Shown: one piece after another, positions 276 through 13,405 of the stretch
Numbering within the stretch: position 1 is the first letter of the stretch
Layout of the letters: each line of letters begins with the position of its first letter
DNA from: an uncultured virus (IMG/VR IMGVR_UViG_3300007770_000008)
Lineage: Duplodnaviria > Heunggongvirae > Uroviricota > Caudoviricetes
Length of the DNA: 20,000 nt
Strand: one strand, 5' to 3'
IMG/VR virus record: IMGVR_UViG_3300007770_000008
Program-made: the position numbers and the translations under genes
Notes under the pieces: generated by a model
What the model was told of the DNA's origin: nothing
Seen by the model: the letters and a program-made list of their open reading frames with translations, nothing else
Databases searched by the model: none

Positions 276-439
276 GCGAAACTCTCTCCTGACGGGTCTT
301 GGAACTCGCAGTAGATTGGTCTGGCGTCGACCTCTACATCACTGGGTGGGTCGATTGTTTCGCAGTGGATGACTAACGTATACCCATCCCCCACTAACCT
401 GCCACCGCAATTCGGACATGAGTCGAAGTTAGGCGTCAT
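272..439 (-). CDS. Hypothetical 55-aa Cys-rich (CPNC...HC...YC) protein
   Basis: Manual translation MTPNFDSCPNCGGRLVGDGYTLVIHCETIDPPSDVEVDARPIYCEFQDPSGESFA. ATGA-coupled at both ends and fills the gap exactly. Confidence 0.7.
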   Translation of the reverse strand: MTPNFDSCPNCGGRLVGDGYTLVIHCETIDPPSDVEVDARPIYCEFQDPSGESFA

Positions 440-1140
440 GCGAAACACTCTTCCGGGATCTCGACGACATCCTGACCCAGGCGGAAATCACGAGCTTTAA
501 GTTTGGTGATGATACGGTTACCCATACGGTCTTTGAGTTCCGTGCTAGGCCGCAACACCAAACCCTCAGCCCACTGGGTGCCTACAAACGATGTAAACCC
601 GGTTTGGGTATACTTTGCGGCCTCGAGCAAAGTACCTTTGCCCACGACGGGTACGAAGGGTAAACCCATTTCCCGTCCGTATTCTTCAACGTCTTCTCGA
701 GCGAAGAACACATCCAGCCCATTTTCGTCATTGACCGACATGATATCGAACAGGATAAATCGCTGCTCTCCGTCAGTCATGTAGTCGCCACCGCCTTTCA
801 TGATGCCCGAACCGTAGCCTTCGCCACACAGTACCAGGTTACCCTCGGGACCGAAGACGCTCTTAAGCATTTCGGGCGTGAAGGTCTTGGCCAGGTATTG
901 CACCAGCCTGCCAGGGATCTGTGCGTTGTCGGTGCGGCCACCGAAGATGACGTCATCGTTGTGTAGGGCCCCTCCCCAGAAGATACGGATGTTGGTACCG
1001 TCGATCTTCTCGGTCCAGGTCCATTCGTTGTTTCGTAGCAAGTGGAACTCGGGGCGGCTCCACTCGCCAAAGTTAAACGTCTTGTTGTTATTCACCGGGT
1101 CCCGATGAAACAGGCTCTGGATCTTGTGATACTTTTGCAT
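436..1140 (-). CDS. ATP-dependent RNA ligase, Rnl2-like nucleotidyltransferase domain
   Basis: N-terminal KYHKI, motif I EKIDGTN, motif III LCGEGYG, IIIa FILFDI, IV AEGLVLRP, V IITKLK. Confidence 0.88.
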   Translation of the reverse strand: MQKYHKIQSLFHRDPVNNNKTFNFGEWSRPEFHLLRNNEWTWTEKIDGTNIRIFWGGALHNDDVIFGGRTDNAQIPGRLVQYLAKTFTPEMLKSVFGPEGNLVLCGEGYGSGIMKGGGDYMTDGEQRFILFDIMSVNDENGLDVFFAREDVEEYGREMGLPFVPVVGKGTLLEAAKYTQTGFTSFVGTQWAEGLVLRPSTELKDRMGNRIITKLKARDFRLGQDVVEIPEECFA

Positions 1141-1143
1141 CGG

Positions 1144-1719
1144 TCACCTGAAAGTTGTTGAGAAGGTCAGTTCTGTCCTTTTGTCGTAATGGTCTCGTTT
1201 GAAACCTGCTGTCTCGATCGCCGCTAACGCCTCGTCGTACAAGGTGTCGCTGGCGTGACCAATTCGCTTGAGCAAATTGACCTTCTCGGCAACGAACAGG
1301 CTGGCGAATTGCTCCGGGGCTCCGCCCATGTCTTGTATATTGTCAATGACGTCGATCATCTTGATTCGCTTGGCCCAGTCGCTCACGCCCGCGAGACGCT
1401 GGTGATCGAGGTACTTCCGTACCGGGCGGCTTAGGTCCGGCACCCATTTGGACACGTTTGTCAGCTCGTCTACTAGCTGGATAGTTTCAAACGAGAATTT
1501 GAGATTGTGCAACGTGCGAAGACTATAGGCCCCGCAGTCCTCAACTACGTCATGGAGCCAAGCTGCCGCGATCTGGTCTTCAGTAACGTTCGTCTCAAGC
1601 GTCGTTCTTGCGGCAACCCTAGCCGGGTGTTCAATGAACGGGCGACCAGTCCACTTTCGTGTCTGGTCCTCATGGGCCACGTCTGCGAGTTGTGCCGCAA
1701 ATATAATGGTGTTTTGCAT
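1144..1719 (-). CDS. HD-domain hydrolase, RelA/SpoT (Mesh1/small alarmone hydrolase)-like
   Basis: HEDQTRKWTGRPFIEHP, AAAWLHDVVED, IKMIDVIDN. Start moved to ATG 1719, preceded by AAAGGA. Confidence 0.85.
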   Translation of the reverse strand: MQNTIIFAAQLADVAHEDQTRKWTGRPFIEHPARVAARTTLETNVTEDQIAAAWLHDVVEDCGAYSLRTLHNLKFSFETIQLVDELTNVSKWVPDLSRPVRKYLDHQRLAGVSDWAKRIKMIDVIDNIQDMGGAPEQFASLFVAEKVNLLKRIGHASDTLYDEALAAIETAGFKRDHYDKRTELTFSTTFR

Positions 1720-1736
1720 GGTGTCCTTTCGATCGT

Positions 1737-2375
1737 TTAAGCCTCGTAGGCCATAATTTGCTGAACAGCAATGATGGCACGATCGGTGCTGAACCAGCCC
1801 GAATCGTCCCGAAGCTTGCTCTCCATGTCTATCCACCAGTGATCGCCTTGCAGCAAATCTCCAATCCGGGGCAGCTCGGTGGCCAAGTTGTCAGGCCCCA
1901 GGCCTCCTGCAAACCCTACAGGCTTGACGGTGTCGGGCCTGCTCCAGGTTTCTGGCGTGATCCCTCGGCCACCAGAATTGTCGACGAGTATTGAGTGATT
2001 AGGTAGTTCCAAATCAATCAGGTCGTGATTGTTTTCGGTGGCTTGGGTGATGATCGTGTGATCCGTGTATATTTCACACAGATCTATCAGAAGCTTCTCG
2101 GAGACAGTACCGTTCACCTGTATTCTCTGAACAAGGTGAGTCAGCTCCGGTATTTCGTAGTTCTCTAGCTGCTGCCGGGCTTCCCGACCGCATACATGCA
2201 GAGCGGTTAGTCGGTGGCGTAGTTCCGAAAGTATTCGCCAGGCAGTCTTACGTGAAGGGTACCGTGTACGCCCTCGCGGCCTACAAGTGTATAGCACCGC
2301 TAGTTCGCAACTCTTAGGTAGCCACTGCACATCGGTGCGGGCATCTAGCCCGGTAAGGGTGATTTTGTGAAGCAT
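1737..2375 (-). CDS. Phosphoribosylanthranilate isomerase (TrpF)-like TIM-barrel protein, phage type
   Basis: ITLTGLD, RIQVN, LVDNSGGRG, GFAGGLGPDN, WIDMES motifs. Start moved to ATG 2375 (MLHKITLTG) just after the upstream stop. Confidence 0.7.
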   Translation of the reverse strand: MLHKITLTGLDARTDVQWLPKSCELAVLYTCRPRGRTRYPSRKTAWRILSELRHRLTALHVCGREARQQLENYEIPELTHLVQRIQVNGTVSEKLLIDLCEIYTDHTIITQATENNHDLIDLELPNHSILVDNSGGRGITPETWSRPDTVKPVGFAGGLGPDNLATELPRIGDLLQGDHWWIDMESKLRDDSGWFSTDRAIIAVQQIMAYEA

Positions 2376-2382
2376 CGTATAT

Positions 2383-3756
2383 CTAGTCCCCTGGGAAGAA
2401 CACTGGCTGGCCTTCGCTCTTGGCACTTGCGTCTTGTAGTCCGAAGGCCATTTCAAGGTCCTCCTTTGGTGGTTTCCTGTTTTCGACACGAACAGTGCAG
2501 CTCGGCGGCGTCGGGTTGTCCGGGCTTAAAATGGCTCGCAACAGCTTTGCCTGAATATCCGCCATGCTTTTGCCGCGTTCTACGTAGCCGAGCAGTTGCT
2601 GTGTTTCTTTTGGGTCAAGTTCGCGATCAAGCAATGCGGTAGCCATGTTAAGTGCTTGTTCGTTGGTGGCAGCAGGCAAGTGCACTTGAAGGTCCACGCG
2701 ACCCGGTCTGATCAGTGCCGGGTCTAGCTTTTCAGGGTGATTGCTAGTCATGATGACTAGCCTGCCTGCTGAGCGGGTAATCCCGTCCAAAGCATTGAGA
2801 ATACCCGACAACGTCAAGCCGTAACCCATTTCACCGTCAATAAGCGTAATAGACGTCTGCCTGTCTTCTTCGTCGTCACCCCGTCGACGTTGTGTAACGG
2901 CGGCACAGTCTATGTCTTCGATCAGCAGAACGCAGCGAGAAGGTATTCCTTCTACCAGCTTGGCGAATTTCGCGTCGTTCAACCCACTCGCCAGCGACAA
3001 CGTGTATACGTTCAACTCGAGGTGGCTAGCAATCGCGGCAACAGCAGTGGTCTTACCGCAGCCAGGTGGGCCAGCAAACAGGTAGCCTCTGCGGTGCGGT
3101 AAGCCATGTTGCTCATACCAGTCGCCGTCGGCAATGAATTTGTCAACGTCCTGTATAACGCGGTGCAACTGACCTTCCGGCCAGAAGACATTGTCTAAGC
3201 TACGTTGTTGCCCTTTACCGACGCTGTACCAGCCGCTGTCGAAACGGTATACCCAGTACCAGCCTCTAGACGGTGGGCCCCAAGACGCGTCTCTCGCGGT
3301 GGCGACGAAGTCGTATATGAATTCTTTTCCCCAACATAGGGTACTGAGCTGCACCGTTTCCTCGTATGCCTTGTTAGACCCGGCCTTGCTTTCAAGCTCA
3401 CGCCTGGTCCGGTCGAACCACAGCGGCCAACCTTTGAACCAGATTATGTGCCAACCTGGTGCCAGGCTTATTCGTAGATCCGGCCTCTCGCCGTAGTCTC
3501 CTGGGTTGACTGTTCTGAGTGACCAGAATCCTCGTACGTAGTGTTCAGTGTGTTCGTCTAGCCAGTCGAAAATCCAGCCAGTCGCAGGATCATTGTCCGT
3601 CAGCAACATCGTGGTCACTGTATAACGCTTGATCCAGTAGTAGATCTTGTGCGGTACGTTTCGTAGGTAGGCCAGGATTCCTGCTAGTATGCCTAGCATC
3701 AGCCCGCCGGTGAAGAACTGGTTGTCGGACGTTAGCAGGCTTGTGAGCCATTCCAT
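2383..3756 (-). CDS. BCS1-like membrane-anchored AAA+ ATPase
   Basis: N-terminal TM segment NQFFTGGLMLGILAG, Walker A GPPGCGKT, Walker B LLIEDID, LTLSGILNALDG, LIRPGRVD arginine finger. AGGAG SD. Ends in TAG. Confidence 0.88.
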   Translation of the reverse strand: MEWLTSLLTSDNQFFTGGLMLGILAGILAYLRNVPHKIYYWIKRYTVTTMLLTDNDPATGWIFDWLDEHTEHYVRGFWSLRTVNPGDYGERPDLRISLAPGWHIIWFKGWPLWFDRTRRELESKAGSNKAYEETVQLSTLCWGKEFIYDFVATARDASWGPPSRGWYWVYRFDSGWYSVGKGQQRSLDNVFWPEGQLHRVIQDVDKFIADGDWYEQHGLPHRRGYLFAGPPGCGKTTAVAAIASHLELNVYTLSLASGLNDAKFAKLVEGIPSRCVLLIEDIDCAAVTQRRRGDDEEDRQTSITLIDGEMGYGLTLSGILNALDGITRSAGRLVIMTSNHPEKLDPALIRPGRVDLQVHLPAATNEQALNMATALLDRELDPKETQQLLGYVERGKSMADIQAKLLRAILSPDNPTPPSCTVRVENRKPPKEDLEMAFGLQDASAKSEGQPVFFPGD

Positions 3757-3855: not shown

Positions 3856-3860
3856 ATAAG

Positions 3861-3982
3861 TTGCAGGCCTGGGAGTCGAACCCAGTCGGCCTCAGTTCAA
3901 ATGAGGATAACAGTCTTGCGATCAGCCCGTTGCCGGGCAAGTTAGTGCTGGACCGCGTTTAGCCTGTCACCAGACACCTGCA
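3861..3982 (-). ncRNA. tRNA-like RNA T1 with a 56-nt Y-module insert (3906-3961); anticodon loop UU-UGA-AC
   Basis: Acceptor UGCAGGU/GCCUGCA, short D hairpin GUC-UGGU-GAC, T arm CUGGG-UUCGACU-CCCAG, anticodon hairpin CUCA-UUUGAAC-UGAG. Confidence 0.75.
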
Positions 3983-3995
3983 ATTGATGATTGTA

Positions 3996-4242: not shown

Positions 4243-4244
4243 AG

Positions 4245-4370
4245 TGGTAGGGGCAGGATTCGAACCTGCACTAACTCGGTGTAAACGAGATAACAATCTA
4301 CCTGTCAGCCTGTTGCCGGGCAAGGTAGTGGTGGATCGTGTTGTTGTGCTAACCATTACACTACCCTACC
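4245..4370 (-). ncRNA. tRNA-like RNA T2 (Val, UAC) with a 54-nt Y-module insert (4289-4342)
   Basis: Acceptor GGUAGGG/CCCUACC-A, D arm GUGU-AAUGGUUA-GCAC, T arm GCAGG-UUCGAAU-CCUGC. Removing the insert gives ACUCG-UUUACAC-CGAGU and a 72-nt cloverleaf. Confidence 0.85.
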
Positions 4371-4376
4371 AAATTA

Positions 4377-4442
4377 CCGGGTAAGTGGACGTCGTGAAGG
4401 GCGGATCATTTACAGTGATAACCTTCATTGACTTCAACCCGG
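4377..4442 (-). ncRNA. Free Y-RNA-like unit A with anticodon-loop mimic CU-GUA-AA (Tyr)
   Basis: CCGGGU-UGAAG...GAAGGUUAUCA-CUGUAAA-UGAU...CCUUCA...CUU-ACCCGG. Confidence 0.75.
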
Positions 4443-4445
4443 AAG

Positions 4446-4572
4446 CTGCAGGCCCTGGAATCGAACCAGGTCTAGCCTCTTAGCAGGAGGATAACAATCT
4501 ACCTGTCAGCCCATTACTGGGCAAGTGTACGGTGGATCGGTTTTTGCTGTGCTACCATTACACTAGCCTGCA
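4446..4572 (-). ncRNA. tRNA-like RNA T3 (GCU anticodon) with a 56-nt Y-module insert (4490-4545)
   Basis: Acceptor UGCAGGC/GCCUGCA-G, D arm GUGU-AAUGGUA-GCAC, T arm CCUGG-UUCGAUU-CCAGG. Removing the insert gives GCCUC-CUGCUAA-GAGGC and a 71-nt cloverleaf. Confidence 0.85.
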
Positions 4573-4577
4573 AAATA

Positions 4578-4653
4578 TGCGGGTAAGGGTTTGGGGAAGG
4601 CGTTTCGTACATCTTCCAAAAAGTTGTGATAACCTTCTTCCAATCAACCCGCA
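4578..4653 (-). ncRNA. Free Y-RNA-like unit B
   Basis: UGCGGGU-UGA...GAAGGUUAUC-[ACAACUUUUUGGAAGAUGU hairpin]-ACGAAAC-GCCUUC...CUU-ACCCGCA. Confidence 0.7.
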
Positions 4654-4654
4654 A

Positions 4655-4725
4655 GTCGTAAAGCCGGGAGTCGAACCCAGTACCCGCACAAGCGGGCAAG
4701 CCAGCGTTTGCTACGCACTTCACAA
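4655..4725 (-). ncRNA. Anticodon-less tRNA-like RNA
   Basis: Acceptor UUGUGAAG/CUUUACGA, D-like GCGU-AGCAA-ACGC, central UGCCCGC-UUGU-GCGGGUA hairpin, T arm CUGGG-UUCGACU-CCCGG. Confidence 0.6.
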
Positions 4726-4730
4726 TAAAG

Positions 4731-4858
4731 AGCCAGAGCTGGGACTCGAACCCAGGACCTAAAGTTGGAGTTAACGATTAACCTTCAGCCCGTCGATCGG
4801 GCAAGCTAACGGAAAACCGTGTTTAAGACTTTTGCTCTACCAACTGAGCTACTCCGGC
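4731..4858 (-). ncRNA. tRNA-like RNA T4 with a 55-56 nt Y-module insert in the anticodon loop (about 4770-4825); anticodon ambiguous (UCC/UUC)
   Basis: Acceptor GCCGGAG/CUCUGGC-U, canonical D arm GCUC-AGUUGGUA-GAGC, anticodon stem AAAGU/ACUUU, variable AGGUC, T arm CUGGG-UUCGAGU-CCCAG. Confidence 0.8.
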
Positions 4859-4859
4859 T

Positions 4860-4924
4860 TGGTGCGATTGGTAGCCCTTTCAATGCTACTTTTAGGGCGT
4901 TGCCTCTCAGCACTCCGCAACCGC
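4860..4924 (-). ncRNA. CCA-ended short tRNA-like RNA (65 nt) without an anticodon arm
   Basis: GCGGUUG/CAAUCGC-ACCA acceptor, UGC-UGAGAG-GCA hairpin, GUAGC-AUUGAAAGG-GCUAC hairpin. Confidence 0.5.
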
Positions 4925-4931
4925 ATAAATA

Positions 4932-4993
4932 GCGAGCAAGTGGACGCGTTAGGGGTGATATCTTAAAAGGATAACCCTAGTGCTTCAGCTCGC
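4932..4993 (-). ncRNA. Free Y-RNA-like unit C with anticodon-loop mimic CU-UUU-AA (Lys)
   Basis: GCGAGC-UGAAG...UAGGG-UUAUC-CUUUUAA-GAUA...CCCUA...CUU-GCUCGC. Confidence 0.75.
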
Positions 4994-4998
4994 GTGTG

Positions 4999-5365
4999 TC
5001 ATCGTAGGAGGTCGATCCTCCCCTTTCCTAGTACTTGTTTGATTGTAGCGGATTTACCTGACCGGTGATCCTTTACCAGGCCCGACTTGAAGTCATAGGT
5101 TCGGACCGTCGTATTGTCATGGATCTTTGCGTCTCGGTCGGCTTTCTTCTCAGCAGCCCGTTTCTCCGCTTTGGCTTCGGCAAGTCTCTTGCTAAAGACG
5201 CCGTAACGCTTCCCGCTTGTTCTTGTGCTGGTCACGTCCGTCGATAGTGACGGAAATACCAGTAGGAATGTGGGTGGCTCGGACACAGGAATCGGTTTTA
5301 TTCTTGTGCTGTCCGCCTTTACCCTTTCCACGGAAGGTTTCGATCTTCACGTCTTTCTTGTTCAC
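4999..5365 (-). CDS. Truncated class I release factor homolog (GGQ peptidyl-tRNA hydrolase domain), about 121 aa via a predicted +1 frameshift at CTT-TAG-C
   Basis: AGGAG SD and GTG 5365. Frame 0 reads [39 protein letters not shown]...REALRRL-TAG (5192-5194). The +1 frame continues SKRLAEAK...[17 protein letters not shown]..., matching the RF1/RF2 C-terminal RTYNF...V.DHR motif. Confidence 0.85.
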
Positions 5366-5394
5366 GAGACTGCTCCTAAGTAATCATCAGCAAG

Positions 5395-5522
5395 GCAGGC
5401 CACTAGGAGTTGCACCTAGACTACCGGCTCCGAATGCGTTAACGATTTCCATTCAGCCCGTTTCCGGACAAGGGGCTGGAGACCGCGTTTTACGGCGTGC
5501 TATCTGTTACACTATGGCCTGC
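5395..5522 (-). ncRNA. tRNA-like RNA T5 (UCG anticodon) with a 55-nt Y-module insert (5438-5492)
   Basis: Acceptor (G)CAGGCCA/UGGCCUG(C), D arm GUGU-AACAGAUA-GCAC, T arm CUAGG-UGCAACU-CCUAG. Removing the insert gives CCGGC-AUUCGGA-GCCGG. Confidence 0.8.
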
Positions 5523-5529
5523 ATAAGTA

Positions 5530-5597
5530 ATGTGGGTAAGGTGATTGTTCGAAGGGGTTCTTCATTTGGGGTGATAACCTTCAACTTCAACCCACAT
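5530..5597 (-). ncRNA. Free Y-RNA-like unit D with anticodon-loop-like CC-CCA-AA (Trp)
   Basis: AUGUGGGU-UGAAG-UUGAAGG-UUAUCA-CCCCAAA-UGA-AGAAC-CCCUUCGA...CUU-ACCCACAU. Confidence 0.7.
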
Positions 5598-5634
5598 AAC
5601 TATCGTAGTAACGCCCCCTGGAGGCGTCAAGTGC

Positions 5635-6543
5635 TTAATTCGGATTGAGCGTAGCAAAGGCTTCTTCAACCAGAGCCCTTGCCTTGTCCGACGGCTCGTC
5701 CGGCGTTTCGTCTTCTCCGAAGTCGTCCCCTTCCAACTCTCGGATTCGGGCAATAGCCTCGTCCGACGTCTTCTGGAAAACTACTACGGAAATCAGCAGC
5801 TCTTTGAGGGCTGCCAGACTAAAGCCCTCTGTTTGGCTTGCCCAGGTAGCCAGGGTTTCCGCAGGCACGTCAAAACTGCTTTGACCGGCGACGAACTCCA
5901 AGTACTCTTGCCGTTGGGGCTTACCAGGCTGGCCTATCTCCAGCAAGGTGTCGATCCGGGAAGGTCGGCAACGAATTCGCTTCGGAACTTCGTCAAGGTT
6001 ATTGGTTGTTGCCAGGAAAAGGATCCCGTGGCCCATGCTCGTAGAGCCGTCCATGAGTTCCAGTAGTTCTTCCTCTTCGCCGTACTCACAGATACGCTCG
6101 ATGTCTTCGATTACACCTAGTACCGGACGTCCCGGCTCGATTTGACGAAGCAGTGGCATGCAGCTCCGGAAATGGTCCACCCCGGATATGAACGTGACAA
6201 CTCCCTTACGCTCGATCGTGTCCCGGATTACCAGTTGGACAATTCCGGTTTTGCCGCAACCAGGAGGCCCGTGGAGGAGTACACCACGTTTGTGGGTCAC
6301 GCCCAGGTTTTTGTAGTGCTCGCCTGTGCTCCAAAACCGCCGGATCTCCTCAACGATTTCATGAGCAGGTCCGTTACGGAATTCACACAACCGCTCATCT
6401 TTCTGCTGCTTGCGGTTTGCCAGCGGGTTGCCCCAGTTGTCTGTTTTGAAGTGGTACAGCCCAGAAGGCAACTGGTCAACAGTCTCGTGCGTGCCGGTGT
6501 AGACATCACGAGACGTGTTGTGGCTCCATTGCTTAAAACTCAT
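5635..6543 (-). CDS. AAA+ ATPase
   Basis: Walker A GPPGCGKT, Walker B GVIEDIE, sensor LATTNN, RPSRID. GAGG SD. Confidence 0.88.
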   Translation of the reverse strand: MSFKQWSHNTSRDVYTGTHETVDQLPSGLYHFKTDNWGNPLANRKQQKDERLCEFRNGPAHEIVEEIRRFWSTGEHYKNLGVTHKRGVLLHGPPGCGKTGIVQLVIRDTIERKGVVTFISGVDHFRSCMPLLRQIEPGRPVLGVIEDIERICEYGEEEELLELMDGSTSMGHGILFLATTNNLDEVPKRIRCRPSRIDTLLEIGQPGKPQRQEYLEFVAGQSSFDVPAETLATWASQTEGFSLAALKELLISVVVFQKTSDEAIARIRELEGDDFGEDETPDEPSDKARALVEEAFATLNPN

Positions 6544-8771: not shown

Positions 8772-8846
8772 CGGCAGCGACGGGACTCGAACCCGTAACG
8801 ACAGAAATTTAGAATTTCCCGCTCTAGCCAATTGAGCTACGCCGCC
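8772..8846 (-). tRNA. Amber suppressor tRNA (anticodon CUA)
   Basis: Full cloverleaf: GGCGGCG/CGCUGCC-G, D arm GCUC-AAUUGGCUA-GAGC, anticodon arm GGAAA-UUCUAAA-UUUCU (CUA at 8812-8810), T arm ACGGG-UUCGAGU-CCCGU. CCA not encoded. Confidence 0.88.
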
Positions 8847-8851
8847 AAACC

Positions 8852-8939
8852 AAGGGGAGCCCGCTACGGATGTAGGACTCGAACCTACGTGGTTTCCTTG
8901 CAGGCCGTCTCGTTCCCTGCAGAACGAGGGGCTCCCCTT
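8852..8939 (-). ncRNA. Unknown structured RNA with a tRNA T arm and a potential pseudoknot
   Basis: 11-bp closing stem AAGGGGAGCCC/GGGCUCCCCUU, hairpin CUCGUUC-UGCAGG-GAACGAG, downstream CCUGCA, T arm GUAGG-UUCGAGU-CCUAC. Confidence 0.6.
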
Positions 8940-8941
8940 AG

Positions 8942-9015
8942 CGGCGGTTGTAGGAGTCGAACCTACCCGTGCCCGACACATAGGCCGGACCGCTCAACCG
9001 TCGAGCATAACCGCC
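8942..9015 (-). ncRNA. Atypical tRNA-like RNA (7-bp anticodon stem, 6-nt loop CUAUGU)
   Basis: GGCGGUU/AACCGCC acceptor, GCUC-GACGGUU-GAGC D arm, GUAGG-UUCGACU-CCUAC T arm. Confidence 0.7.
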
Positions 9016-9021
9016 GCGAAA

Positions 9022-9938: not shown

Positions 9939-10035
9939 CGGGCGAGGGAGGATTCGAACCTCCAACCCGTTACCCAGGCGTTGCCGAATACAGAGCCTGT
10001 AATGGTACCGCTCTAACCAATTGAGGTACTCGCCC
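9939..10035 (-). ncRNA. tRNA-like RNA with an elongated anticodon arm (97 nt)
   Basis: GGGCGAG/CUCGCCC acceptor, D loop AAUUGGUUA, T arm GGAGG-UUCGAAU-CCUCC. The anticodon arm is replaced by GUACC-AUUA-CAGGC-(15 nt)-GCCUG-GGUAAC. Confidence 0.7.
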
Positions 10036-10116: not shown

Positions 10117-10197
10117 TGGAGAGTGAAGGATTCGAACCTTCGACTGACGGCCTTCGTCTTATTGACGGGGCCCGCTCTACCGCTGAGCTAACTCTCC
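10117..10197 (-). ncRNA. tRNA-like RNA with a non-canonical anticodon arm (loop AAUAA)
   Basis: GGAGAGU/ACUCUCC-A, GCUC-AGCGGUA-GAGC, GAAGG-UUCGAAU-CCUUC. Arm GGCC-C-CGUC-AAUAA-GACG-AA-GGCC. Confidence 0.75.
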
Positions 10198-10201
10198 GAA
10201 G

Positions 10202-10287
10202 CGGGGAGTGAAGGATTCGAACCTTCGACCTTTCGTTGCACGAGGAGGCCTCTCGCAACGAACGCTCTACCACTGAGCTAACTCCCC
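10202..10287 (-). ncRNA. tRNA-like RNA with an 11-bp anticodon-less arm
   Basis: GGGGAGU/ACUCCCC-G, GCUC-AGUGGUA-GAGC, variable AGGUC, GAAGG-UUCGAAU-CCUUC. Arm UUCGUUG-CGAG-AGGCCUC-CUCG-UG-CAACGAA. Confidence 0.75.
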
Positions 10288-10321: not shown

Positions 10322-11062
10322 TTACTTCTTCTCGTCCGACCCCTTGTACTTATCAACCCCGGCGTCTGCCTGAGCTGCTCGATCCTCGTCATCGAACATC
10401 TCTAGACTGGCGGAGGTTACCTGGGCCGTGTAAGCCTCTTGACTCATACCCCGTGTTCTGGTCAGGCCTTTGCTCAAACCCTTGAACAGATCTGTGGTGC
10501 CTTGGCTGTTGTTAGCAGCGGTCAGAACGGCTTTGGCGTTACTAAAGCCCATAGCTTGTGCAACGTCCTCGGCGTCCTGGTTCATGCCGACGTAGGTAAA
10601 GGCCCAGGAGTATTTGCTTTCCTGTTCCTTGACCATCTCTTGCAGCCGTCGTTGAATGGATTGGGCGTTGCTGCCGTAAGGCGTGCCCCACTCAACATGT
10701 GCCGACGCGTTCTCGAGACCGTCGGTCAGCGTAACAAACACCACCTTATCTGGTCGATCGGCTTCTGGCATCTTGACCAGCCGGTCACCGGTATCTGTAA
10801 TCGCTCGGCACTGTGACGCCCATAGCGGGGTCATGCTTCGCGGATGCAGCATAAGTGACGGCACCTCTGCGATCGGTACGGCTCGGTAGACCACGTCAAA
10901 GCCGTTGCTGTCGAACTGGATGAGCGTTACAAAGCACTCGCCCGGTTCTTCGGCCTGCTCTTTAATCATGGCGTCAAAGCCACCGACTACGTCGGATTTG
11001 ATTGAGGACATCGACCCCGAGCGATCCAATAGGAAGGTCAGGTCGGTTCGGTTCTTCTTCAT
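10322..11062 (-). CDS. von Willebrand factor A (vWA) domain protein
   Basis: MIDAS FLLDRSGS, VTLIQFD, MTPLW, VTLTDGLENAS. Confidence 0.88.
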   Translation of the reverse strand: MKKNRTDLTFLLDRSGSMSSIKSDVVGGFDAMIKEQAEEPGECFVTLIQFDSNGFDVVYRAVPIAEVPSLMLHPRSMTPLWASQCRAITDTGDRLVKMPEADRPDKVVFVTLTDGLENASAHVEWGTPYGSNAQSIQRRLQEMVKEQESKYSWAFTYVGMNQDAEDVAQAMGFSNAKAVLTAANNSQGTTDLFKGLSKGLTRTRGMSQEAYTAQVTSASLEMFDDEDRAAQADAGVDKYKGSDEKK

Positions 11063-12157: not shown

Positions 12158-12991
12158 TTAGACTACGCGGTGCGGGTAGTAAGGCACACCACCGCTGGTG
12201 CGGATACCGTCACGGCCTAGTTGATAGCGTTTTTCGTAACGAAGTGAGGCGGTGCTGTGGCCGTTTGGTGCTTTCGCGACGTAGTGTTGTCCGCTCATGC
12301 CCAATTGTCCTGCTGTGTTCAAGGTCAACGCACCCAGCATACCCCAGCAAAGTGCCAGTTCGCCGCACTGAAAGCGGACGTGGTATTCGAGCAAATCGAG
12401 AACACCGTCGTGGACGTCGGGGTCAATTTCAACTTTGTGGCCGTCTTTGAAAGCCCGGGCCTGTGCAAACTGGACAGGCGAGGTAGGGCTGTTGAGCCCT
12501 TCGGTCCCTAGAGAAACGAACTGGGCTTCGAAGTAGTTCGCTCCGGCGTGGGCGAGCGAGCCCAGCACCTCCTGGTCCCACTTGGCACCAGCCTGCGGTG
12601 TTCGCAGGTCGTCCCAGACTTTGTTTGTGTCAGCGGCCTTCGACACGTTAGTTACCGCCGGGCTTTTGCTCGAGAACCGAGCGGTCCTGCCTCCGCCGAT
12701 GAATTTTGGGTCGGCGAACTTATAGGGTTTTCCCTGTTGTTCGTTTACAAAGTCAATCCCTACTCGCTTGAGTTTCGTGCGATTCGAAACCACAACATCA
12801 AGCATCCAGTCTGGTACGGGTACGGTATCTCCGGGCTTCAACTCGAGGCTATCCGTCGCTGCTTCCAGTGCAATCAGCTCGTTGGCTTTAATGTCCCGCT
12901 CAGCTAGGCTGTGGGGCTTGTTGTCTAGTTCATACCTGAGTTGCTCGATCCGCTCTTTTCTGCTCTCGTTGCTCTCTGATGTGTTTGACAT
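12158..12991 (-). CDS. Hypothetical protein
   Basis: ORF track. Start moved to ATG 12991 with AAGGA SD. Confidence 0.7.
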   Translation of the reverse strand: MSNTSESNESRKERIEQLRYELDNKPHSLAERDIKANELIALEAATDSLELKPGDTVPVPDWMLDVVVSNRTKLKRVGIDFVNEQQGKPYKFADPKFIGGGRTARFSSKSPAVTNVSKAADTNKVWDDLRTPQAGAKWDQEVLGSLAHAGANYFEAQFVSLGTEGLNSPTSPVQFAQARAFKDGHKVEIDPDVHDGVLDLLEYHVRFQCGELALCWGMLGALTLNTAGQLGMSGQHYVAKAPNGHSTASLRYEKRYQLGRDGIRTSGGVPYYPHRVV

Positions 12992-13217
12992 GATCGTGTC
13001 CTTTTTGCGTGAGTTCGTATTGCTCACGGGTACGGTCACCGTCCCCGTACGGAATGTTGATGATATGCACTAGTTCGCGTTTAACCAGGCTTTGCATTAT
13101 TCGGCGGGTGACGCCGGGGCCGTCCCAAGACCAACCGCAACCTACTGCTGACCAAAAGCCAAATTCGGCCAAGGATTGCAGGCATGTTTCTTGGCGTTCT
13201 CCTAGGGGTCTTGTCAT
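12930..13217 (-). CDS. Small putative winged-helix DNA-binding protein
   Basis: TRRIMQSLVKRELV...YELTQKG pattern. ATG 13217 with GAGGAG SD. Confidence 0.55.
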   Translation of the reverse strand: MTRPLGERQETCLQSLAEFGFWSAVGCGWSWDGPGVTRRIMQSLVKRELVHIINIPYGDGDRTREQYELTQKGHDHVKHIREQREQKRADRATQV

Positions 13218-13405
13218 TCTAATCTCCTCAGGTCTCGTCTCGCCCTTCGTGCTGGTGTCGTAGTCGGCACGCATCGTTGAGCCTAGTTTCAGACTCGAGT
13301 ATGAAATTTTCGTTGGCTATTCGCTCAGCTACGAACAAAGACTGCAAATGATCTTTTAACAACCACATAAGAAAACGGGCTGCTGTATTACGTACCCACC
13401 CCATG

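Follow-up and report, generated by a model that had tools for sequence, protein, structure and literature searches.

A phage gene for a stand-alone RF1-type GGQ protein is split at a CUU-UAG-C shifty stop and may be expressed by +1 frameshifting

On the minus strand of an uncultured phage (IMG/VR record IMGVR_UViG_3300007770_000008), a gene of the release-factor family is divided between two reading frames at the heptamer CTT TAG C. A TT to TTT insertion in the phage lineage appears to have split a gene for a 121-residue stand-alone RF1-type GGQ protein, and the inserted T would have fallen on the one position that yields the shifty stop CUU-UAG-C. Full-length protein could then be made solely by +1 ribosomal frameshifting, and we consider the chance that the gene is expressed in this way to be nearly even. 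In favor of a shift that is used, the joined frames encode a complete RF-1 domain and a strong Shine-Dalgarno (SD) sequence has been retained at the start. The heptamer is the same as that of the Mimivirus release-factor gene R726 and corresponds to the prfB motif with UAG for UGA. The parts of the gene are listed here with their positions in the window, which is the whole stretch of 20,000 nucleotides that was analyzed.

5373..5378 (minus strand): Shine-Dalgarno-like TAGGAG, 7 nt upstream of GTG 5365-5363, read from the sequence
5195..5365 (minus strand): frame-0 part, codons 1-57 (GTG to CTT); Pfam RF-1 positions 8-65, E 1e-19
5191..5197 (minus strand): shifty-stop heptamer CTT TAG C, with CUU in the P site, UAG in the A site, then C
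4999..5193 (minus strand): +1-frame part, codons 58-121 and TGA; Pfam RF-1 profile positions 65-116
5150..5194 (minus strand): frame-0 tail reached by amber readthrough (TAG, 13 codons, TGA), without homology to the family

The GTG codon at 5365 opens a frame of 57 codons that contains the G-x-G-G-Q motif together with the initial 12 residues of a long helix, and ends with CGT CTT TAG C. Here, CTT is codon 57 (5197-5195), TAG occupies 5194-5192, and the final C lies at 5191. The +1 frame starts from AGC (5193-5191) and runs for 64 codons to the TGA at 5001-4999. It contains the remainder of the helix, the R-T-Y-D-F and D-H-R strands, and a C-terminal helix. Reading CTTT in one step joins the two frames to a 121-residue protein (P0001), which matches Pfam RF-1 (PF00472) with an E-value of 5.2e-28 and 97.8 bits (cut-off 35) over positions 7-116 of 116. 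Searched separately, the 57-residue N-terminal half covers profile positions 8-65 and the 110-residue open reading frame (ORF) in the +1 frame covers positions 65-116; since these stretches adjoin, the break is colinear to the residue. An alignment of P0001 with 31 homologues needs no gap at the junction (ALRRL/SKRL compared to the consensus ALKEL/EKRL), and the 121 residues also align without gaps to more than 100 continuous homologues of about 122 residues at 50-71% identity. Residues G17, G18, and Q19 are invariant in the family alignment. A first-pass annotation of this DNA had described the split with its coordinates and the CTT-TAG-C heptamer, and reading the minus strand reproduced both. 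The release-factor-like C-terminal half that it placed in the +1 frame is confirmed by the Pfam match to positions 65-116. Amber readthrough is indeed the short dead end that it described, since the TAG position is followed by 13 residues and then TGA.

By sequence and by predicted fold, the product is the C-terminal third of RF1, consisting of the GGQ domain, the long helix, and the C-terminal strands. A search of a collection of 5.8 billion proteins returned 256 relatives at E ≤ 1e-5. The best 120 of these 256 are nearly all continuous proteins of about 119-135 residues with 45-71% identity over the whole query, and the closest one (P0008) is about 70-71% identical. Compared to solved structures, the family profile matches RF1 best (residues ~217-340, E 2e-30), followed by RF2 (E about 4e-26), PrfH (E 3.5e-22, with the match beginning at chain residue 107-110), and C12orf65 (E 8e-16). 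ArfB and ICT1 match the first ~30 positions only (2-31 for ArfB), with E-values from 1e-7 to 5e-4. For the intact homologue P0008 (71% identical; alignment of 63 sequences; mean pLDDT 88), an AlphaFold model predicts three strands around the GGQ loop, a 37-residue helix (44-80), three further strands, and a short helix. With this model as query, Foldseek ranks ribosome-bound RF1 chains first (E 1.3e-8, TM 0.63). The split falls between model residues 55 and 56, that is, 12 residues into the long helix, and for this reason the 57-residue product is unlikely to fold alone.

The phage protein keeps the GGQ motif, the long helix, and the R-T-Y-N/D-F...D-H-R strands of RF1 (prfA), but with ~121 instead of ~360 residues, it lacks domain 1 and the codon-recognition domain. 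The joined protein has no match to PF03462 (PCRF/codon-recognition domain), as the first-pass annotation had anticipated, and P0001 begins 16 residues before GGQ, so domain 1 is absent too. The longer relatives P0114, P0115, P0117, and P0119 do have PF03462. As a truncated GGQ hydrolase that would act without reading a stop codon, the product resembles PrfH (RF-H, which goes with RtcB2), ArfB/YaeJ, C12orf65 (mtRF-R), and ICT1. Most likely it is a codon-independent peptidyl-tRNA hydrolase that would free stalled ribosomes during infection. The more specific proposal that it is ArfB- or PrfH-like did not hold, since RF1 is closest, ArfB aligns over ~30 residues, and the N-terminal domain of PrfH is missing. 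An ArfB identity was rejected on architecture: the basic tail is not present, the C-terminal half is of RF1 type, and the similarity (E about 1e-7) extends over positions 2-31. ArfB and ICT1 also differ in having another C-terminal tail. A PrfH identity was rejected because the ~105 extra N-terminal residues of PrfH, a domain-2-like region preceding its GGQ domain, have no equivalent in the phage protein, and because no RtcB was found among the 21 ORFs scanned.

The window appears to belong to a large phage; among the matching contigs, the longest measures 152 kb. The split gene lies within an array of tRNA and tRNA-like genes on the same strand. Its surroundings include the following features.

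436-1140 (minus strand): RNA ligase (PF09414), by Pfam
1144-1836 (minus strand): HD phosphohydrolase (PF13328), by Pfam
1737-2489 (minus strand): unknown ORF
2383-3756 (minus strand): BCS1-like AAA ATPase
4728..4860 (minus strand): tRNA-Leu(UAA)-like gene "d", with a shared insert, ~140 nt downstream of the stop of the split gene
5386..5518 (minus strand): tRNA-like gene "e", with the shared ~55-nt insert, ending ~29 nt upstream of the GTG start
5635-6543: another AAA ATPase
8772-8846 (minus strand): amber suppressor tRNA with anticodon CUA and a 7-nt loop (ARAGORN; Rfam tRNA 58.4 bits)

The window also encodes a GP88-family protein and has many PHROG matches. The row from 436 to 3756, comprising the RNA ligase, the HD phosphohydrolase, the unknown ORF, and the BCS1-like ATPase, shares its strand with the tRNA array. 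The TAGGAG hexamer that precedes the split gene also occurs 5' of the BCS1-like ATPase gene. Several listed ORFs overlap by ~100 nt (1144-1836, 1737-2489, and 2383-3756; also 12158-13039 and 12930-13274); their listed starts may be too far upstream. PrfH has been tied to RNA repair (PMC6514570). The phage gene shares with PrfH-RtcB the company of RNA-processing enzymes, in that the RNA ligase and HD phosphohydrolase genes are ~3-4.5 kb away, but the ligase is of the PF09414 type and not RtcB. A GGQ gene together with tRNAs, an RNA ligase, and an HD enzyme would by analogy be thematically like PrfH-RtcB in RNA-damage conflicts.

Proximity to tRNA genes recurs in the family. Among 26 related loci scanned, 12 have the homologue within 2-6 kb of same-strand tRNA genes, which suggests that the family is a companion of phage tRNA arrays. 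Homologues sit inside large phage tRNA arrays in L008, L009, L082, L086, L088, L090, and others, and in L088 as many as 38 tRNA genes occur within 12 kb. In these loci, no tRNA with a CUA anticodon was seen. Release factors and suppressor tRNAs of phages are discussed as parts of code-change modules in a preprint (bioRxiv 10.1101/2021.08.26.457843). The amber suppressor of the present phage occurs in a region that reads well in the standard code, and three genes in the window end in TAG. Reassignment of TAG was considered and rejected: reading TAG as Q repaired no gene, the extensions were short or overlapped other genes, and the standard code was retained. The ORF at 10322-11062, for example, already spans PHROG profile positions 3-202 of 204. 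The stops at the 23 listed ORF ends are TAA (13), TGA (6), and TAG (4). UAG followed by C ends a frame at the split only, while A, T, and G come after the three genuine TAG stops. A tRNA-Ser(GCU) of the phage that might feed the AGC codon of the +1 frame was likewise discarded, as the ARAGORN prediction at 4445-4515 lies in the insert-bearing tRNA-like gene "c" and is absent from the Rfam matches.

How might translation proceed at the split? A ribosome that carries peptidyl-tRNA-Leu on CUU while UAG occupies the A site would face three competing outcomes. Termination by RF1 would release the 57-residue fragment. Readthrough by the phage amber suppressor tRNA, which would compete at this UAG, would lead to a 71-residue dead end. 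Alternatively, the Leu-tRNA could re-pair from CUU to UUU, so that AGC is decoded next and translation continues to the 121-residue protein with the junction RRL-SKRL. The rate of slippage is probably low because no internal SD is present, perhaps a few per cent at most, and it would be higher when decoding of UAG is slow. The limit of a few per cent without an SD is an estimate from work on the prfB site. We infer that slippage reaches a useful level and responds to RF1 and to the suppressor tRNA.

Two known systems come closest to this arrangement. The first is prfB, the gene for RF2, which has CUU in the P site, an in-frame stop followed by C (CUU UGA C), and a +1 shift that produces a release-factor-family protein. 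As in prfB, slow decoding of the stop is expected to raise the yield from the phage site. The phage site differs in that the stop is UAG, an internal SD is missing, and the site is not conserved among homologues. It also lies in the helix after the GGQ domain, whereas the prfB site is near the N terminus, and a product without a stop-codon reader is not expected to close a direct feedback loop. According to a survey of more than 12,000 genomes (PMC12421855), the prfB stop is never TAG, the internal SD 3 nt upstream is almost universally retained, and prfA has no programmed shift. The second system is Mimivirus R726, a viral release-factor homologue whose +1 shift takes place at the same heptamer, CUU UAG C; the corresponding site in Megavirus is CUU UAA C, and in E. 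coli R726 gave both the short and the full-length band (PMC3521657). R726 and Megavirus mg280 are class-I release factors of the eRF1 type from eukaryotic giant viruses, they require an additional UGA readthrough, and their recoding is conserved across two viruses at 47% identity. In contrast, the phage gene is of the bacterial RF1 type, truncated, and has its site in one lineage only. prfB and Mimivirus R726 are the nearest precedents; if the shift is not used, the phage split is an ordinary lesion. The papers found by full-text searches do not describe an amber shifty stop in any phage gene for an RF1-type GGQ protein.

The flanks of the heptamer contain none of the usual stimulators. No SD-like element (AGGGGG- or GGAGG-like run) was found 3 nt upstream of CUU, where the sequence reads T-T-A-C-G-G followed by the spacer C-G-T; the first-pass annotation had noted the same weakness. 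Downstream and flanking segments showed no stimulatory RNA fold beyond shuffled controls (z 0.40, -1.16, and -0.48). The bare heptamer is not enriched in the window, with two matches compared to 2.08 expected.

The split site was then compared with related genes. Among 99 related loci from IMG/VR and metagenomes, none has a split frame; each gave a single unbroken tblastn match. The homologous position encodes Leu in 76 of the 99 (CTT in 9), the following codon is AGC in none, and residue 58 is Glu in most homologues, compared to Ser in the +1 reading of the window. A search among the shorter proteins of the 5.8-billion-protein collection identified only the N half of the window itself among three candidates. 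A search with the C-terminal half among proteins of 34-111 residues identified only the +1 ORF of the window among two candidates. In a scan of IMG/VR for GGQHKN with CTTT-TAG/TGA/TAA-C placed 95-125 nt after it, the three stops gave 14, 1, and 2 matches, none of which (0 of 17) is release-factor-like. The relatives recovered were a single one at 40% identity from IMG/VR, searched with peptides of the window, at least 18 at no more than 58% identity from metagenomes, and one at 46% identity from genomes; the IMG/VR and metagenome matches did not include the phage itself, and near-identical phage DNA was not found among GenBank phages. As judged from these sequences, the split is private to one lineage among relatives that are at most ~71% identical. 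The conservation of CTT-stop-C among homologous phage genes, which the first-pass annotation had proposed to look for, is therefore not observed: relatives are continuous or broken elsewhere. That annotation would have given up its reading if close homologues were continuous and a reporter showed background-level shifting. The homologues are continuous, although the nearest is only ~70% identical.

Irregular members of the family were also noted. The homologue at L038:2001-2366 (IMGVR_UViG_3300009149_000025) is interrupted near residue 80 by an in-frame TAA (AAT TAA ATC). This locus belongs to a longer subfamily with a domain-2-like N-terminal part, and homology to the family resumes in the same frame past the TAA, which is either damage or a readthrough gate. 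L038 is the sole further internally stopped member among 100 loci (the 99 and L122). The homologue in L098 is degenerate. P0118 (94 residues, from a 70 kb Logan contig) is 66% identical over 64% of the query, departs from the family alignment after KAKIK, and stops four residues on, with ~80 residues kept. Its sequence suggests a second, independent break in the Lys-rich helix.

These comparisons bear directly on the strongest alternative, namely that the gene is a young pseudogene. By this account, replication slippage inserted a T and inactivated an accessory gene, the likeness to a recoding site is coincidental, and full-length protein is not made in useful amount. Addition of a T to a TT run is the commonest type of indel. 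The split is private to the lineage, it is accompanied by neither an SD nor a stimulatory structure, and other sporadic lesions occur in the family (the TAA of L038, the degenerate L098, and the truncated P0118). The same observations, namely the lack of conservation, internal SD, and RNA structure (99 loci; shuffled controls) and the sporadic damage within the family, argue against a programmed shift. On the other hand, the site is not one that an insertion would often produce. One-base insertions into the uninterrupted frame give 1,081 distinct products, 107 of which create a stop at the insertion site and one of which creates CTT-stop-C; when only insertions of the duplication type are counted, 1 of 260 makes an in-frame CTT-stop-C. 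A chance event would thus have to be of the kind that happens once in 1,081, or once in 260, and to fall in the release-factor family, where this motif is known in use. In addition, the form with three T is the sole allele in four samples. Decay of the C-terminal half was not detectable by two measures. Relative to the N-terminal half, its identity to relatives ranks 54 and 67 of 114 family members, in a ranking that left out P0096, P0122, P0118, and proteins outside 110-150 residues; and it retains the nearly invariant residues R88, T89, Y90, V97, D99, and H100. An intact C-terminal half is also what a recent lesion would show. We regard the pseudogene as a serious contender, with a probability that falls short of even.

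Expression by +1 frameshifting is compatible with more than one history. The shift may be an evolved control or, equally, a tolerated and compensated lesion. Compensatory ("savior indel") frameshifting, in which low-level slippage partly corrects a DNA indel at the same site, is described in PMC5009743. The examples known are long homopolymer runs, whereas the phage gene has a shifty stop. That CUU-UAG-C is an evolved amber gate, through which the amount of full-length GGQ protein would scale with the time that a ribosome waits at UAG, seems to us unlikely but worth stating. Autoregulation by sensing RF1 is plausible, but this idea is weakened by the sequence of the product: without a stop-codon-reading domain, classical autoregulation is not expected. 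Codon-independent release by the product at the paused ribosome is possible.

What would follow depends on which of these readings is correct. If the amber gate were true, it would let the phage monitor the activity of RF1 together with the state of the phage amber suppressor tRNA. The gene would then be the counterpart of prfB and Mimivirus R726 in a bacterial virus, and the first case in which UAG-based frameshifting controls a gene of the bacterial-type release-factor family. If the shift is used at all, the logic of prfB, a shifty stop in a release-factor-family gene, would have arisen again in a phage, this time with an RF1-specific stop, an amber suppressor tRNA nearby, and a protein unable to read stops. 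The site would then represent a compact natural sensor of UAG termination efficiency, and would give a handle on the role of the stand-alone RF1-type GGQ proteins that accompany phage tRNA arrays. If the gene is dead, one slippage insertion can imitate a textbook recoding signal, and the motif without conservation is insufficient as evidence.

Three further explanations together account for about one chance in ten. The first is four-base decoding, in which the frame would be restored by a phage tRNA that reads UAGC (or CUUU) as a single codon. Two structured RNAs lie beside the suppressor tRNA, and the one at 8941-9017 is relevant to this idea.

8848-8940 (minus strand): 93-nt RNA with a T-arm-like hairpin, beside the suppressor; fold z -4.4
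8941-9017 (minus strand): tRNA-like RNA beside the suppressor; weak tRNA-Sec match, 29.8 bits

Decoding UAGC in one step would lead to the frame of the +1 slip and to a protein of equal length, and the window contains an amber suppressor and several odd tRNA-like RNAs. In the RNA at 8941-9017, the acceptor stem measures 9 bp and the D stem 6 bp, and a loop of 6 or 8 nt includes CUA within the loop region C-C-U-A-U-G-U-G. Also in favor of this idea, residue 58 is Glu and not Ser in most homologues, with AGC in none of the 99 loci. Against this, the clear suppressor tRNA has a normal 7-nt loop, the 9-bp acceptor stem of the 8941-9017 RNA goes with an Rfam score of 29.8 bits compared to a cut-off of 47, and there is no sign that this RNA is charged or decodes. 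We consider four-base decoding very improbable.

The second is an artefact of sequencing or assembly, the true genome reading CTT AGC in one continuous ORF. One-base homopolymer errors do happen, but the T run is merely three long. Logan contigs of 13.9-28.3 kb from four separately assembled runs cover 4400-6000 with no differences and no gaps at a word depth of 10-22, so that the search for an indel suggested by the first-pass annotation, carried out at the level of contigs, turned up no TT form. The four runs represent four samples of one marine-metagenome study that may include the source sample, and for this reason are not independent of the window; the comparison used assembled contigs, which can hide minority variants. 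Across these four samples the allele with three T was the only form seen. In addition, the exact 110-residue +1 ORF is recorded from 10 contigs (JGI/IMG) and the exact 57-residue ORF from 6 contigs (Logan, ENA). Identical contigs from four runs, together with half-ORFs called on 10 and 6 contigs, exclude a single assembly slip. The extra T is real DNA and not a one-off assembly error, although a minority allele may be present; an artefact is accordingly an explanation to which we assign next to no weight. Just as improbable is the third explanation, two separate polypeptides consisting of the 57-residue GGQ fragment and an internally started C-terminal protein: both ORFs are open and the +1 ORF has a GTG at 5331, but this GTG has no SD, the first 46 residues of the 110-residue ORF are out-of-frame sequence without a family match, the break interrupts a 37-residue helix of the predicted fold after its first 12 residues, and no homologue is split likewise.

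Finally, the tRNA array contains two further groups of unusual RNAs.

3856-3990, 4243-4372, 4443-4574, 4728-4860, and 5386-5518 (minus strand): five tRNA-like genes
9939-10035, 10117-10197, and 10202-10287 (minus strand): tRNA-like genes with normal acceptor, D, and T arms

The five genes of the first group have one conserved insert of ~55 nt in common at the position of the anticodon arm. Their acceptor, D, and T arms are kept, with two-sided changes in 16 of 29 consensus pairs, and the insert contains an inner hairpin (GCCCG/CGGGC) with compensatory changes. In copy "d", the insert comes at position 37/38, after a Leu-type loop (C-U-U-A-A-A). The shared insert matched neither a ribozyme nor an intron in Rfam, and the five matches to its motif in IMG/VR include none within a tRNA. 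The inserts could be decoys, or else small introns or signals for processing by the RNA ligase and the HD enzyme encoded nearby. In the three genes of the second group, a long hairpin replaces the 7-nt anticodon loop. The hairpin of 10202-10287 comprises 9 bp and 4 bp with a triloop (fold z -5.1), and this gene and 10117-10197 are paralogues.
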